A stretch of DNA of 21,730 nucleotides from Candidatus Aenigmatarchaeota archaeon (lineage in GTDB: Archaea > Aenigmatarchaeota > Aenigmatarchaeia > QMZP01). Position 1 is the stretch's first letter, and every line of letters starts with the position of its first letter. Shown one piece after another: positions 6,885 to 18,347 of the stretch. The DNA lies in contig JAWCLA010000010.1 of NCBI GenBank assembly GCA_039091855.1, positions 1 to 21,730 of the forward strand, read 5' to 3'. The notes beneath the pieces were generated by a model. It ran no database searches, had not been told where the DNA came from, and saw only the letters and a list, made by a program, of their open reading frames with translations. The position numbers and the translations under genes were made by a program.

Positions 6885-8957
6885 TTATGCACAAGCCCCA
6901 TCAACGCAGCCGTTGGGGCATTTATACCACTCATTAAAAACATAACCGTTATTAGAACAATAATATTCTATTAGTGAACCAGTCTCGGGACTACAATTAT
7001 CTGTATATGTTTTATAATAGTTTTCTAGTGATGCTGTAGTGTATAATACTCCATATGTTGTCCCTTTTACATAATAGTCCTTCCCGCCGTCTGAGTCATT
7101 GCAAATAAGTTGCTGGCAGTCCTGCGGGCAGTTGCACACATTTTCCAGTTGGCTGCATATTCCATCGCCGCATCTTATGCAGGTTCCTATGGGCGAGCCT
7201 GCGACCATTCCTGTTTCCACACAAGCTCCGTTCTGTACAATCCTCGTGTCCATTCCCGACATCCATTCAGTAAGACCTTCGCAGCAATGCTCTGGATATT
7301 CCTTATAAACCTGTGAAAATCTCTCGCCTTCATTTGCACAGGTTTTAGATGGGCTTTCGCATTTGAATTCTGCATATTCATTCTCTCCATCAATTAGTGT
7401 ATAAGCATATCCTCCGCATGAACTCTTCCATGTTAGCTTTTTGCCTTTTTCACCTGAAACATCAGCTATACAGGTTCCTATTCCGGAACATCCAAATTCG
7501 CCATCTTCATTGTAACAATTTTGCATTTCATTAGAATTGATAAAAACGCATTTTACTTGTTCTTTGACAATCAATGATCTTTCAGAGCATTCATTCCAAA
7601 CCTTGAATGTGTTAACCCCGCACTTGATAAGGTTGGCTGATGTTGCAGTTGGCGTGTTGCACCTGCCGAGGCAGGATTCCTCTGCATATTTTCTCCATAC
7701 TTCTGCAGGCTTGCAGGAGGTCTCTCCTCCCTCATAAAATTCCTTCCCGTCATGACACTGCCAATAAGCGTTTCTGTAATAATATTGTTTTGTTTGTGAT
7801 GGACAAGGATAAAACTCGCAGTTTTTGTTCGGATCTCTGCCCACTGTTGTCCCATCTGGACATACCTTTATGTCTTCTGGACAACCCTTGCTTGATTTTG
7901 CCCATTGGCAACTGCCTTTAGTAGCTGTTTTGTCCATAACACACTTACAAGTAAAACCATACTTATCTGCATTATAACAGTCCTTCCATTCGCAGGTTGT
8001 TGGAACAGGATTCTCATTAACAACGCTCTGGCATACCTCCCCCGAGCAGCCTCCTCTTACACAGTCAGAATCGCTTGAGCAGGGACCGTAAGTGGAGAAG
8101 CCGCAGAACTCCTCCTTTGGAAGGCAACACATACCGCCTTCCTTGCAGAAGTAATTGGGAGAGGCATAATAGCCCTCTTTGCATTGGTAGGAAATCCTTG
8201 TGCTGGCTGCCGTGGTTTCTGTGGCTATTACCATCCCTGTTGTTTCTGCCTGTCCGATACTTTCTGCGCCACCCGCTATGGATGGTAATATGCAGTAACC
8301 GCCTGCATCTTCGCAAACTTTCTGCGGCTTTGGCTTGCAGAACCCGTTCTCGCATCCATATTCACAGTATTCCTTCTTTTCCTGCTTGTTGCCGCAGGAG
8401 TCAAACCAGTAAACATGGTCGCCATAGCACCTGTATTCGGCATGGGACTTGCACTCACCGAGGCACTTCTCTCCTGAGCAGCCGTACTTGCAATACTCCT
8501 TCTTTTCCTGCTTGTTGCCGCAGGAGTCAAACCAATATATGTGTCCTGAATCGCATTTGTAATAGCTGTGACTTTCACAAATGGGTTGTGGCTTTGGTTT
8601 TTCCACAACCTTTCCTTCGCTTCCGACCTTGTATGCACACTCTATTACCCTTTCCTTCCAGTCTATCCAGGCAACAGCAAAGAATCCTGTTTCTGTGTCA
8701 TTTACAATAATCCTGTAAAACTCCTTCTCGTCAATGTAGGGATTGTCACAATCCTTCCTTATCTGGTCTATTATGTTCTTTGACTGCTCTGCTGTGAAAT
8801 GTGTTATCTTTATCTCAGCATTTGGGTGCTCTTCAAGGAACTGCTTTATAATCGGGTTTGACCTTGCCAAAGATGAAGGATCTATTCCCGTGCATCCAGA
8901 GAGGGAAATAACTAAAAGAATTGGCAAAATCAATAAAGCAGATTTTTTTGAGTTCAT
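6885..8957 (-). CDS. Cys-rich multidomain surface lipoprotein
   Basis: Basic N-terminus, hydrophobic stretch and lipobox-like LSGC; two WFDSCGNKQEKKEYC repeats; eight-cysteine-cluster-like domain (FCGFSTYGPC..DSDC..GGCSGEVC...CEW..C); CPEDIKVCPDG module; C-terminal CNDSDGG..YYVKG...CPNGCVDGAC domain. Confidence 0.85.
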   Translation of the reverse strand: MNSKKSALLILPILLVISLSGCTGIDPSSLARSNPIIKQFLEEHPNAEIKITHFTAEQSKNIIDQIRKDCDNPYIDEKEFYRIIVNDTETGFFAVAWIDWKERVIECAYKVGSEGKVVEKPKPQPICESHSYYKCDSGHIYWFDSCGNKQEKKEYCKYGCSGEKCLGECKSHAEYRCYGDHVYWFDSCGNKQEKKEYCEYGCENGFCKPKPQKVCEDAGGYCILPSIAGGAESIGQAETTGMVIATETTAASTRISYQCKEGYYASPNYFCKEGGMCCLPKEEFCGFSTYGPCSSDSDCVRGGCSGEVCQSVVNENPVPTTCEWKDCYNADKYGFTCKCVMDKTATKGSCQWAKSSKGCPEDIKVCPDGTTVGRDPNKNCEFYPCPSQTKQYYYRNAYWQCHDGKEFYEGGETSCKPAEVWRKYAEESCLGRCNTPTATSANLIKCGVNTFKVWNECSERSLIVKEQVKCVFINSNEMQNCYNEDGEFGCSGIGTCIADVSGEKGKKLTWKSSCGGYAYTLIDGENEYAEFKCESPSKTCANEGERFSQVYKEYPEHCCEGLTEWMSGMDTRIVQNGACVETGMVAGSPIGTCIRCGDGICSQLENVCNCPQDCQQLICNDSDGGKDYYVKGTTYGVLYTTASLENYYKTYTDNCSPETGSLIEYYCSNNGYVFNEWYKCPNGCVDGACA
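8371..8534. repeat. Exact 38-bp intragenic direct repeat (126-nt period)
   Basis: TCCTTCTTTTCCTGCTTGTTGCCGCAGGAGTCAAACCA at 8371-8408 and 8497-8534, within a 42-aa module duplication. Confidence 0.9.
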
Positions 8958-9009
8958 TATAAAATTATTTGTTGGTAGGTATATATATATTTCCTTTCAA
9001 ACCTATGTT

Positions 9010-10314
9010 ATGAACCTGAGGGATGTTTACGAGTATTATTCAAGGGATGACATACAAAAATTCTTTGTCGAGTTCTCAAAAAACAGGGAAGTGGTTGGCG
9101 TCTTCAGGAACGGCTCGTACAGCACAAGGCCAGGCACTCTCGTTTACCCGCAGGACATTCTTGCGATGGTTAAAGAAGGTTCTCTTGAGTTTCACTGCTC
9201 TATAGAGAGATGGTCGCAGCCGATGAGCCTGAGATCGGACAATTATGATTCGCTCAGGACAGGTTGGGACGTGGTTCTGGATTTGGACTGCGAGATATTT
9301 GAGCACGGGAAAATCGCTGCAAATGTTCTTTGCTGGGCGCTTGAAAAGCACGGCGTAAAGGGATACTCTCTTAAATTCACGGGTGGGACAGGGTTTCACA
9401 TAGGAATACCCTGGGAGGCCTTTCCAAAGACAATAGACTACAAGCCTGCTGTAAATATGTTTCCTGATCTTCCAAGGCAGGTTGGGCTTTACCTCAAAGA
9501 ATATGTCAGGGAGAAACTGGAAAGGGAACTGCTCAAGAATTATGGGATAGAGAAACTGGCAGAAGAGGTGAAAAAGCCCCTTGGCGAGATAAGCGGAGAA
9601 TCCTCTCCACTGGACCCTTTCAAAGTTGTTGACATTGACACCGTTCTCATCTCTCCGAGGCACCTGTTCAGGATGCCATACTCGCTGAACAAGAACACCT
9701 TTTTTGTTTCTCTTCCAATAAGGAGAGATGAGCTTGAAGATTTCAAAAGAGAGCACGCTGACCCTCTCACTCACATAATAAAAGTTAAGGAAAGGTTTCT
9801 CGATTCGGGCGAGCCCGACGAGGCTCAGCTCCTTGTTGGAGAGGCAGTTGAGTGGTGGGCAAAAACAAAGAGAAAGGAGGCTGCAAAAAAGGAATACAGG
9901 GAAAGGATAACAGAGGCTGTGCCTAAGGAGCTCTTCCCTCCATGCATCCAGAAAATACTTCAGGGCATTCCTGACGGGAAGAAGAGGTCCGTTTTCATTC
10001 TTTCCACGTTTTTGAGGTCTGTGAAATGGAATTGGCAGGACATAGAAAGGGAGATAATGGAGTGGAATTTGAGGAACAAGCCTCCGCTCAGGGAAAACTA
10101 CATAAGGGGACAGTTAAGGTGGCACAGGACGCAAAACAGGGAAATACTTCCTCCTGGTTGCTCCAATCCGGGATGGTATGAGTCATTTGGGGTATGCAGT
10201 CCTGACTATTTCTGTGGTGGAGCCGCAAAAACAGTGAAGAACCCTGTGAACTATCCTTGGAGAAAAATTAAGGAAGGGGCAGGCAAGAAATCAGGGCATA
10301 AGAGAAGGCGTTGA
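9010..10314 (+). CDS. Fused PriS-PriL DNA primase
   Basis: Likely start is ATG 9010, since the longer frame overlaps the lipoprotein gene. PriS motifs GWDVVLDLD, KFTGGTGFHI and RHLFRMPYSLN, followed by a PriL C-terminal Fe-S domain FPPCI...PPGC...C...C...KNPVNY. Confidence 0.9.
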   Translation: MNLRDVYEYYSRDDIQKFFVEFSKNREVVGVFRNGSYSTRPGTLVYPQDILAMVKEGSLEFHCSIERWSQPMSLRSDNYDSLRTGWDVVLDLDCEIFEHGKIAANVLCWALEKHGVKGYSLKFTGGTGFHIGIPWEAFPKTIDYKPAVNMFPDLPRQVGLYLKEYVREKLERELLKNYGIEKLAEEVKKPLGEISGESSPLDPFKVVDIDTVLISPRHLFRMPYSLNKNTFFVSLPIRRDELEDFKREHADPLTHIIKVKERFLDSGEPDEAQLLVGEAVEWWAKTKRKEAAKKEYRERITEAVPKELFPPCIQKILQGIPDGKKRSVFILSTFLRSVKWNWQDIEREIMEWNLRNKPPLRENYIRGQLRWHRTQNREILPPGCSNPGWYESFGVCSPDYFCGGAAKTVKNPVNYPWRKIKEGAGKKSGHKRRR

Positions 10315-17222: not shown

Positions 17223-17551
17223 ACGCTCGAATTAAGCTTGCTGGAAGAAACATAGAGGAATTGAACCAGATATGCGAGGAGATAAAGGAGATAGCAAAGA
17301 GGCACGGAGTTTCCATACGCGGGCCTATGCCATTGCCTACAAAGAAACTGAGAGTGACAACATTGAAGACACCCTGCGGTGACGGAACAGGGCACGGAAA
17401 CGCGACATGGGACAGGTGGGAGATGAGGATTCACAGGAGGATTGTGGACATAGGAGCGAACGAGAGGGCATTGAGGCAGGTGGTAAGAATCCCGATACCG
17501 GAAGGCGTTAAGATAGACATAGAGCTTAAGGAAAAGTACGAGCATCACTGA
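17216..17551 (+). CDS. rps10: 30S ribosomal protein S10
   Basis: [24 protein letters not shown]...[12 protein letters not shown]. Confidence 0.97.
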
Positions 17552-17622
17552 TTCTTATAAGAAGAAATAATTCTGTCACTCAAAAACTAAAAATTAGTGA
17601 ATCGCTTATCGTACGAGTCCGA

Positions 17623-17638
17623 CAGAAATTTTTATAAA
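17623..17638 (+). promoter_or_regulatory. Putative BRE and TATA box
   Basis: CAGAAA-TT-TTTATAAA about 22-30 nt upstream of the ATG at 17660 and the structured region. Confidence 0.55.
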
Positions 17639-17668
17639 TGGTTGTGAGAAATATTTTTTATGCAAAAA

Positions 17669-17963
17669 ACTGCTGTCCATAGGTCCGTTTATGTAATTGG
17701 ACTCATGGCAGTGGTTAATCGATTTATCCCAACATTCCCTATTAAGTGCGGATGCACATGGGAGTAAGTTGGGATGATTCCGTTCTTCTTTTTGCCAAAA
17801 GCGGATGACCGACATCCTATCTCCGGCTTGAATTCCATTGGATTAATTCTAACCGAAGGTCCGGGAATGCAGAATCTAAGCCCATGGAGCGCAATCCATT
17901 CTGTGTTTCCGGCTTCGACTCTGGCCGGATAAAAGATATTCTGCTCCCGGACCTACCCAGCCC
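17669..17963 (+). ncRNA. Unassigned highly structured RNA (~295 nt)
   Basis: Many helices, e.g. ACTGCTGT/ATGGCAGT, ATCCCAAC/GTTGGGAT, AGGTCCGGGA/TCCCGGACCT, GCAGAAT/ATTCTGC, TCCGGCT/GGCCGGA; G-U wobble pattern favours the + strand. Confidence 0.55.
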
Positions 17964-18029
17964 AAAAAAATAACTTAACTTTTGTTCGAATGGGTTTAAA
18001 TTGTTTTTCAATGGCAAAAAGGTGATGGT

Positions 18030-18206
18030 GTGGAAAGAAAGATGGAAAGGGAGCGGAATAATAGGTTGGTTTCAGAAGCTGAACTGCCAAACGAGTATGA
18101 AATAAAGAGCGATTATTGTTATTGTGTGGTTTGCTACATCAGGGATATTTGTATAAGGGATGGGTACAGGTGCTTTGTAAAAAACCTTGAATGGGAGGTT
18201 GAGTAA
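18030..18206 (+). CDS. Cys-rich microprotein 1 (58 aa from GTG, 54 aa from ATG 18042)
   Basis: SD-like GGTGA at 18021-18025; ...DYCYCVVCYIRDICIRDGYRCFVKNLEWEVE; stop abuts the next ATG. Confidence 0.6.
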   Translation: MERKMERERNNRLVSEAELPNEYEIKSDYCYCVVCYIRDICIRDGYRCFVKNLEWEVE

Positions 18207-18347
18207 ATGCCTGGAATAAGGATTAATGGAAGGAGGTTTGACATAACCTGCACGCCTGAGGACTGCTATCTGTGCTCACATCTTTCTATTTGCAGGCTTG
18301 GGGTTTCGACTTTGTGCACCGATTCGTGTATAATCAGAAAGATGTGA
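18207..18347 (+). CDS. Cys-rich microprotein 2 (46 aa)
   Basis: SD GGAGGT upstream; MPGIRINGRRFDITCTPEDCYLCSHLSICRLGVSTLCTDSCIIRKM; ends 2 nt from the convergent pfdA stop. Confidence 0.65.
   Translation: MPGIRINGRRFDITCTPEDCYLCSHLSICRLGVSTLCTDSCIIRKM

Follow-up and report, generated by a model that had tools for sequence, protein, structure and literature searches.

What kind of gene lies between rpsJ and its downstream neighbors in a genome of the archaeal phylum Aenigmatarchaeota? The DNA analyzed here, called the window throughout, is a stretch of 21,730 nt. It corresponds to contig C2 of G000, a genome of 689 kb that is 84% complete. A preliminary description, made from the sequence alone, had placed a novel noncoding RNA (ncRNA) or regulatory leader at positions 17660 to 17963 and assigned to it two mutually exclusive long-range folds, A and B. 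This was right in spirit, as the RNA of this locus is real and conserved, strongly structured and still unclassified, and has a promoter to itself. Judged by comparison with homologous loci, positions 17630 to 17986 are a predicted self-standing gene comprising a 35-codon open reading frame (ORF), a kink-turn (K-turn) hairpin, and a covarying stem-junction module with a single-stranded tail (Table 1). The designation as noncoding holds only in part because positions 17660 to 17767 are a conserved ORF. Its stop codon stands flush against an L7Ae-type K-turn, which is a new arrangement of known parts, not described before; a search of the full-text literature yielded no description of such an element.

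A small ORF ends directly at a kink-turn

ORFs that start from the conserved ATG comprise 22 to 41 codons. Fifty-two loci were collected; one of them ran into the end of its contig, and the other 51 were examined for the stop codon. In 42 of these 51 loci, a stop codon occupied positions -7 to -5 before the word GGAUGAUUCC (TAA in 19, TGA in 18, and TAG in 5). TGG was never seen there; with about two occurrences expected, this is weak proof alone. Upstream of the stop codon, the frame was open for at least 22 codons in 42/42 loci (median, 35.5), compared to 10/42 loci for each of the other two frames (medians, 10.5 and 11). Among the nine loci without the fixed stop codon, it was shifted by one base in two, and in five the frame ended at the UGA that is part of the K-turn. 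Because the loci span six families, we consider the frame to be clearly maintained, despite the kinship that makes related loci not independent of one another. Within genera, 215, 221, and 298 substitutions fell on codon positions 1, 2, and 3, respectively. Single-base codon differences were synonymous in 107/292 cases in frame versus 93/320 and 53/339 cases off frame, a mild signal. In the window only, the frame is open for 55 more codons after the TAA (ORF at 17774 to 17932, + strand); it closes after a few codons in G003, as judged by eye, and we take this extension as chance.

Such an ORF, with its excess of third-position and synonymous changes, could belong to a plain or dual-function small mRNA of which the peptide of 22 to 41 amino acids (aa) is the product. 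The K-turn and the 3' module would then act as a stabilizing or localizing 3' untranslated region (UTR) or provide a second, trans-acting RNA function. The element's own promoter and the absence of a downstream gene in several families point in the same direction. Bacterial dual-function small RNAs (sRNAs) with a small ORF include SgrS, RNAIII, and SR1, and the element resembles them as a short, structured RNA, transcribed on its own, that also contains a conserved small ORF. It differs in being archaeal, in its barely conserved peptide, and in the end of its ORF, which is locked to a putative protein-binding K-turn. The peptides diverge almost freely between genera and shrink to 6 to 9 codons in some copies. 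None of 31 peptides matched a Pfam family (nothing below an E value of 0.085), and those residues that are kept best coincide with strands of RNA helices; unlike the peptide, the adjoining K-turn is invariant across the phylum. On balance, a small mRNA made for its peptide appears unlikely.

In a standard K-turn, tandem sheared G.A and A.G pairs come after a 3-nt bulge, and the motif is flanked by a canonical and a noncanonical helix (PMC5061560). The hairpin that begins after the stop codon conforms to this definition. All 50 distinct sequences show the pattern, the core letters being invariant by collection, since the loci were gathered with the core pattern. Pair 3 of the canonical (C) stem was formed in 40/50 of these sequences (UA in 22, GC in 12, GU in 4, UG in 1, and CG in 1), compared to 27 and 16 in slid controls, and pair 4 was formed in 35/50 versus 24 and 25 in slid controls. 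Pair 5 was no better than slid controls in the same 50 sequences. In the genus alignment, pair 3 was UA in four sequences, CG in one, and UG in one. This covariation supports the C helix as a real helix. Concerted variants of the K-turn, such as a change from U.U to C.C in locus L206, were seen by eye among weaker matches to the covariance model described below.

According to PMC5689011, a G:C pair at -1b:-1n combined with U:U at 3b:3n is the signature of the archaeal box C/D K-turn, which does not fold in Mg2+ alone and needs L7Ae. The K-turn of the window has the same G:C and U:U, together with U:A at 4b:4n. By its sequence, it is of the box C/D-like, protein-dependent type and is a predicted binder of L7Ae. 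The genome contains an L7Ae gene (C30:2462-2740, 109.6 bits) and a gene for a second PF01248 protein adjoining S8 (57 bits), which is likely L30e by its position. A fibrillarin gene is present, and Nop10 was not found in the 84%-complete genome. The 5' UTR of the L7Ae gene (C30 of G000) reads AGGAGGGGAUGAUAUGAC; its word GGGGAUGAU is like the K-turn 5' strand and shares bases with both the Shine-Dalgarno sequence and the start codon.

With fibrillarin and L7Ae genes in the genome, a box C/D-type K-turn may also be expected in a purely noncoding L7Ae ribonucleoprotein (RNP), that is, a scaffold or a new kind of guide related to box C/D or H/ACA RNAs, in which the ORF would be untranslated. The 5' end and the start codon, often buried in a helix, fit this explanation, and the likeness to box C/D sRNAs extends to the 3-nt bulge, the tandem G.A/A.G pairs, U.U at 3b:3n, and G:C at -1b:-1n. 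However, the box C/D consensus is RUGAUGA (C) and CUGA (D), whereas the boxes here are AUGAUUC and AUGA, invariant in the 50 sequences. Only 8 to 38 nt, pyrimidine-rich and unconserved in sequence, join the two boxes, too few to accommodate C'/D' boxes together with two guides of ~10 to 12 nt. An ACA follows the C stem in the genus of the window and in G027 but not in other families, so that there is no general ACA box, and Rfam matches are lacking as detailed below. Position 4b:4n is U:A instead of the G:C of the archaeal C/D K-turn (PMC5689011), and an ORF lies upstream. An untranslated RNA would give no reason for a frame that is open in 42/42 loci versus 10/42. We regard a noncoding RNP as improbable.

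A K-turn-type motif downstream of an mRNA stop codon is also found in the eukaryotic selenocysteine insertion sequence (SECIS), where a K-turn-like motif is bound by SBP2, a member of the L7Ae family (PMC1874613). In the element, by contrast, the K-turn is located directly at an ordinary stop codon (TAA, TGA, and TAG alike) and not far downstream of a recoded UGA. The ORF of the window is open under translation table 11 with no internal UGA, and no selenoprotein context was seen.

Folding strength and comparison with known RNA families

On the + strand, positions 17660 to 17963 yielded a minimum free energy (MFE) of -110.7 kcal/mol, compared to -80.9 ± 4.8 kcal/mol for 100 dinucleotide shuffles, none of which was as good. 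The resulting z score of -6.17 is far beyond the shuffles; the - strand scored -3.05. The RNA remained unassigned, as had been claimed. In searches with Rfam 15, it was without a match at gathering scores in the whole window, and 0 matches were obtained at E values of up to 10 on positions 17400 to 18200, including the models for signal recognition particle (SRP) RNA (RF01857) and RNase P RNA (RF00373). At E values of up to 1, 20 diverse homologous loci yielded only three tRNAs and one chance match in neighboring sequence. The Rfam aptamer models of known riboswitch classes had no match in the window or in these 20 loci, and ARAGORN detected neither tRNA nor transfer-messenger RNA in the window.

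The preliminary description had kept a very divergent SRP or RNase P RNA as a fallback. Archaeal SRP RNA and RNase P RNA are, like the element, highly structured single-copy RNAs of ~300 nt. The words GGUCCGGG, GCAGAAU, and CCGGCUU, which we take to be reminiscent of P4 and CR-V of RNase P RNA, were also counted in favor of this identity. Both RNAs are, however, found elsewhere in the genome. SRP RNA is located at C1:1888-2202 (139.2 bits, above the Rfam cutoff), and a candidate RNase P RNA is located at C8:10034-10360 (- strand), a full-length match with 52.5 bits and an E value of 1.8e-14, a score below the Rfam cutoff of 84 bits. This candidate has CR-II/III-like words; its S-domain words match well, but its CR-I/P4 region matches poorly. 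RNase P RNA also carries L7Ae K-turns (PMC4245976). The fallback was set aside because both RNAs are present elsewhere; with no match here even at sub-threshold scores, with GGUCCGG pairing and covarying with the 3' end, and with the CCGGCUU hairpin absent in G027, identity with either RNA is refuted for practical purposes. A P4-like reading of AGG(U)CCGG with CCGGCUU was likewise tried and rejected on the covariation of GGUCCGG and the missing hairpin, the CCGG/CCGG pairing being uninformative.

Long-range folds and local alternative pairings

All 15 helix strands from which the preliminary description had built its two-fold switch were found where it had placed them. Covariation was evaluated in an alignment of six sequences (the window, four congeners, and one member of another genus) against 500 shuffles; for fold A, the K-turn stem was used in place of the outer helix at 17726-33/17768-75. 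Fold A proved to be conserved with compensatory changes. Its helices were paired in 88.6% of cells, compared to 32 to 46% in slid controls, and six pairs were changed on both sides versus 1.8 in shuffles, with 0/500 shuffles reaching six. Fold B and the end-to-end closure, on the other hand, lacked covariation. The fold B helices 17861-75/17898-912 and 17822-28/17923-29 were 72% paired with one double change, a value that 248/500 shuffles reached, and the inner half of this fold was 51% paired. The closure (17672-87/17948-61) was 62% paired with no double change. The stable stretch of fold B is uninformative because a CCGG palindrome facing CCGG pairs with any copy of itself, and the duplicated words behind fold B are largely CCGG-containing palindromes. 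One strand of fold B is also split by insertions in congeners and belongs to a hairpin missing in G027. Both sets of helices exist in the window, but an RNA that toggles between folds A and B by means of duplicated words is hardly credible, given that fold B and the closure are unsupported in homologs. The term switch-like may be right, but for other, more local helices.

Such a helix lies in the hairpin that precedes the K-turn. Its outer, anti-K-turn helix overlaps the C stem and the bulge (17768-75), and for this reason it and the K-turn exclude each other; its inner helix was 100% paired in 6/6 sequences. The 5' strand of the K-turn has two alternative partners, the ORF-internal strand 17726-33 and the K-turn's own 3' strand 17809-13. 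In the MFE fold of the naked RNA, the anti-K-turn helix was formed and the K-turn stem was not. Perfect anti-K-turn complements of at least 7 nt within the upstream 103 nt were found in 15/51 loci, compared to 77/2,040 control windows (3.8%), an enrichment of about 8-fold; complements of at least 6 nt were found in 24/51 loci versus 15% of controls. As seen by eye, changes in the shared strand are matched by both of its partners in some lineages (L025 and L027). Anti-K-turn pairing is, by these counts, recurrent and not universal.

The start of the ORF is structured as well. The 5' hairpin inside the ORF had 70% of cells paired in the genus alignment, with one double change. The equivalent helix of many other lineages is formed by the ATG and the ~8 nt before it with a strand in the middle of the ORF. 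A perfect complement of at least 7 nt forming such a start-codon helix was found in 18/48 loci versus 6.0% of 1,920 control windows, and its sequence differs by lineage.

The 3' module and its variation

In the six-sequence alignment, the closing helix of the 3' module was 88.9% paired and included a double change from CG to UA. The module of family f21 is closed by an invariant UUGAG..AAGG/CCCUCAA helix; 4 of the 11 closing pairs predicted for it, all in the extension, showed compensatory changes among 12 sequences. As judged by eye, the module is present as tandem copies in some lineages; it is absent from family f18. The single-stranded tail is complementary to the 5' flank of the K-turn, with an enrichment that is weak overall. 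Complements of at least 6 nt between this flank and the tail or downstream CCCAA words occurred in 22/50 loci versus 24.8% of controls, and those of at least 7 nt occurred in 6/50 versus 5.8%. Pairing of the K-turn loop with the 5' strand of the module (RNAduplex, 40 shuffles per locus) was not supported, with a median z score of -0.02 and 5/51 loci below -2, although the best site for the loop was the module strand in several f21 loci.

The RNAs of the congeners are 447 to 484 nt long, compared to ~305 nt in the window, because palindromic hairpins are inserted between the conserved blocks. Those in the linker are of the type UUGAAGG-stem-CCUUC. The congener copies (L005 to L008 in G001 to G004) contain small hairpins that read (GA)UUGAAGG-stem-CCUUC(UUUC) as insertions at several sites, and the type recurs in G000 at C3:2433, C7:5554, C7:9629, and C11:10540 and in the 5' UTR of the L7Ae gene on C30. 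From their sequence, they look like miniature mobile hairpins.

Distribution and genomic setting

A BLAST-type search recovered the stretch in 9/61 related genomes (G000 included). Among them were 4/4 other members of the genus, which carry the element at ~70% identity with the same TATA box, the same spacing, and the same blocks. The most conserved block, written as the pattern GGGATGATTCC-N8-38-GGATGACC, was found in 20/91 genomes of the order. Shortened by one base at each end, it was found in 60/371 genomes of the phylum, and a reversed-pattern control had 0 matches in any genome. A small covariance model of the core detected the element in 39/91 genomes of the order, distributed over families f1 (18/46), f2 (8/23), f6 (11/14), f5 (1/1), f4 (0/5), and f3 (0/1). 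In f21, it matched 37/70 genomes, including 13/20 of those of high quality; the element is always present in some genera of this family (g109, 9/9) and never in others (g87, 0/6). A scan of 185,579 species genomes with the pattern returned at least 119 stretches, with ~130 chance matches expected by an arithmetic estimate. Among the matches listed, the fixed stop codon was present in 13/17 archaeal-titled loci versus 0/20 of the first bacterial-titled loci examined, and the archaeal-titled loci that have it belong to Aenigmatarchaeota, an "uncultured archaeon," and one metagenome-assembled genome labeled Nanohaloarchaea. These sequence matches suggest a candidate RNA family of Aenigmatarchaeota-type DPANN archaea that is widespread in the phylum.

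The order S9-S10-element-prefoldin-PTH2 is kept in f1. In part of f21, the element is located between Pus10 and a convergent SRP54 gene, and elsewhere its neighbors are unrelated. Four f1 genomes without a model match were inspected. In two of these, S10 abuts prefoldin, in one, another gene follows, and in one (L218 in G036), there is a 130-nt spacer. This spacer contains a 31-codon ORF whose 5' end is like the first helix of the element, with no K-turn, and may be a remnant of it. The patchy distribution, with whole genera lacking the element, occasional second copies, and a start codon buried in a helix, would be compatible with a selfish or toxin-like small gene, i.e., an mRNA resembling those of type I toxins whose fold-back hides the start codon. 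The element is, however, present in a single copy in most genomes, its synteny in f1 is stable, its presence follows clades, and the peptides are not hydrophobic, as judged by eye. A toxin-like gene is very improbable.

The upstream TATA box of the preliminary description was confirmed: TTTTATAAAT is identical or nearly so, at equal spacing, in 6/6 aligned homologs, and TATA-like boxes precede the element in other families as well. The usual archaeal spacing from TATA box to transcription start places the start about at the ATG. With only 30 nt from the first base of the box to the ATG, the transcript is predicted to be leaderless or nearly so. Archaeal transcription is terminated by T-runs, and a possible terminator of this kind follows the tail. 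A look-up of RNA runs listed none that contains the stretch, and one metatranscriptome from the study of the best-matching DNA run yielded 0 contigs; neither outcome bears on expression.

Table 1. Features of the element and their positions in the window
Feature	Position	Strand	Remarks
Gene unit, overall	17630-17986	+	RNA of ~300 nt (~305 nt in the window)
TATA-like promoter box TTTTATAAAT	17630-17639	+	Box starts 30 nt before the ATG
Small ORF	17660-17767	+	35 codons plus TAA (17765-17767); conserved ATG; 5' third of the RNA
5' hairpin inside the ORF (ACTGCTGT/ATGGCAGT)	17669-17712	+	In the MFE fold
Hairpin before the K-turn	17726-17775	+	Outer helix 17726-33/17768-75 (anti-K-turn); inner helices 17734-39/17760-65 and 17746-49/17754-57
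K-turn hairpin	17768-17813	+	GGGAUGAUUCC...GGAUGACC fits the standard K-turn
K-turn C stem	17768-72/17809-13	+	First base immediately follows the stop codon
K-turn 3-nt bulge GAU	17773-75	+	
K-turn sheared G.A and A.G	17776-77/17807-08	+	
K-turn U.U	17778/17806	+	
K-turn noncanonical (NC) stem, Watson-Crick pairs	17779-82/17802-05	+	
K-turn loop	17783-17801	+	Pyrimidine-rich
Linker	17814-17856	+	Genus-conserved word GGCYUGAAUU.CAUUGGAU, from alignments; large hairpin insertions in congeners
3' stem-junction module	17857-17954	+	Covarying
Closing helices of the module	17857-66/17945-54 and 17869-75/17938-44	+	Enclose a junction with the word AAGCCC
Module hairpin 1	17884-88/17895-99	+	93% paired, 2 double changes
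Module hairpin 2	17908-13/17924-29	+	87% paired, 1 double change; absent in G027
Single-stranded 3' tail ACCCAGCCC	17955-17963	+	ACCCAACCC in congeners; kept in 5/5 genus members
T-run TTTTGTT	17980-17986	+	Possible archaeal terminator, read from the sequence

The window carries archaeal housekeeping genes, namely, those for a Hel308-type helicase, LeuRS, GINS, L44e, aIF2-alpha, SRP54, L18e, L13, S9, and S10. The element is located between rpsJ (S10, ending at 17551) and two small cysteine-rich ORFs, and prefoldin and PTH2 genes converge on it from the opposite side. The two cysteine-rich ORFs (58 and 46 aa; 18030 to 18347, + strand) lie 3' of the RNA and have a GGGTTTAAAT box of their own. 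Neither has a Pfam family, and the 46-aa ORF is 65 to 74% identical in four congeners. Elsewhere in the window, a 523-aa ORF (8743 to 10314, + strand) has weak Pfam matches to the small and large primase subunits and to the LigD primase-polymerase domain and may encode a fused primase. On contig C8 of the same genome, the 3' part of the 23S rRNA (L003) has insertions of 32, 58, 40, 119, and ~35 nt relative to the Rfam archaeal large-subunit model.

Variants with downstream genes

In family f18 (L038 to L048), the ORF and the K-turn occur without the 3' module and are followed after 45 to 88 nt by a gene with a Shine-Dalgarno sequence. Its product is a single zinc-ribbon protein of 55 to 66 aa that resembles the N-terminal ribbon of RPB9/TFS. 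The gene was identified by script at 9/11 loci; at L040 (for which the script returned none) and L048 (for which it returned a different ORF), it was identified by eye. The zinc-ribbon protein of L048 matches PF02150. In the genome of the window, the best match to this protein (C12:7786-7938; E value, 0.002) does not adjoin the element.

Four other copies (L034 and L035 of genus g18 and L210 and L214 of genus g39) have ORFs of 6 to 28 codons, led by a Shine-Dalgarno sequence, that end at the K-turn 5' strand or run through it; by eye, the latter is the case for L034 and L035. These copies carry the K-turn and the 3' module. They are located after the gene for an ArsR-type regulator and before a gene for CorA (L034) or a ZIP transporter (L214). 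Such a position would suit a leader with a K-turn that works like a riboswitch and responds to a small ligand or a metal ion, the short ORF being part of the expression platform, and K-turns are common architectural parts of riboswitches (PMC4316175). However, for a K-turn of this sequence type, metal ions alone do not suffice for folding. In the main copies, including that of the window, same-strand genes downstream are either lacking or unrelated. No match to a known riboswitch family was obtained, and only four copies with such short ORFs were seen. We consider a leader of this kind decidedly improbable.

A proposed switch gated by L7Ae and translation

The explanation that we favor, with a probability of roughly 35%, is that of a switch gated by both L7Ae and translation, in which L7Ae, the anti-K-turn strand, and the terminating ribosome compete. 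Without protein, the K-turn 5' strand would be held by its ORF-internal complement (17726-33 with 17768-75), and binding of L7Ae would move it from this helix into the K-turn. A ribosome reaching the stop codon would have to cover and melt the same strand. With a stop codon in the A site, a ribosome covers roughly the next 12 to 15 nt, a span that here takes in the 5' strand of the C helix as well as the bulge and the G.A pairs. Because of this footprint, a terminating ribosome and the folded, L7Ae-bound K-turn would exclude each other, and pairing with the ORF-internal strand would provide a third, protein-free state. The switch may set the fate of a 3' cargo, i.e., the RNA module in the window, the zinc-ribbon gene in f18, and metal transporters in the short-ORF copies.

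Several observations weigh against such a switch. It should be noted that the peptides are hardly alignable between families and poorly conserved and that their best-kept residues are mostly encoded by RNA helix strands. A strong anti-K-turn complement of at least 7 nt exists in only 15/51 loci, and with G-U pairs allowed, there was no difference from the null (mean, 7.96 versus 7.46). Part of the invariance of the K-turn core follows from the sampling, as the core itself served to collect the loci. The element is also dispensable, as it is missing at the syntenic S10-prefoldin spot in 3/4 f1 genomes checked and in whole genera. Finally, the family of the window has no same-strand gene within the transcript, and the output of the switch is therefore undefined there.

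In archaeal (Sulfolobus) mRNAs, including the l7ae 5' UTR, nop5, and others, L7Ae represses translation via K-turns (PMC5539422), and L7Ae/K-turn translational regulation in archaea is also described in PMC6298567. By analogy, the element may be regarded as a relative in principle of this repression, since it likewise has a K-turn of the protein-needing sequence type on an mRNA-like transcript, at a place that the ribosome must pass. It differs in the position of the K-turn, which adjoins the stop codon of a very small ORF and is not located in the 5' UTR or the first codons; in the window, it follows the stop codon, whereas the short ORFs of L034 and L035 run through it. Furthermore, the transcript is neither that of L7Ae, which is encoded on another contig, nor that of a known protein, it carries an extra conserved 3' module, and binding is predicted only.

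A broader reading of the L7Ae- and translation-gated switch, which we consider rather doubtful, is that it represents a new class of archaeal riboregulator, in which termination would be mechanically coupled to assembly of an L7Ae RNP. The cell could thereby read its free L7Ae or its translational capacity. Free L7Ae would serve as a proxy for the assembly of ribosomes and small RNPs, and a modular cargo on the 3' side would receive the signal. Synthetic biology already makes use of L7Ae/K-turn pairs; if the coupling is true, the element would offer it a compact part of natural origin that is gated by a protein. The genomes of DPANN archaea are tiny, and to our knowledge, almost no regulatory RNAs have been described in them. 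If the coupling is true, it would extend L7Ae-based regulation from roadblocks in 5' UTRs to termination-coupled switching.

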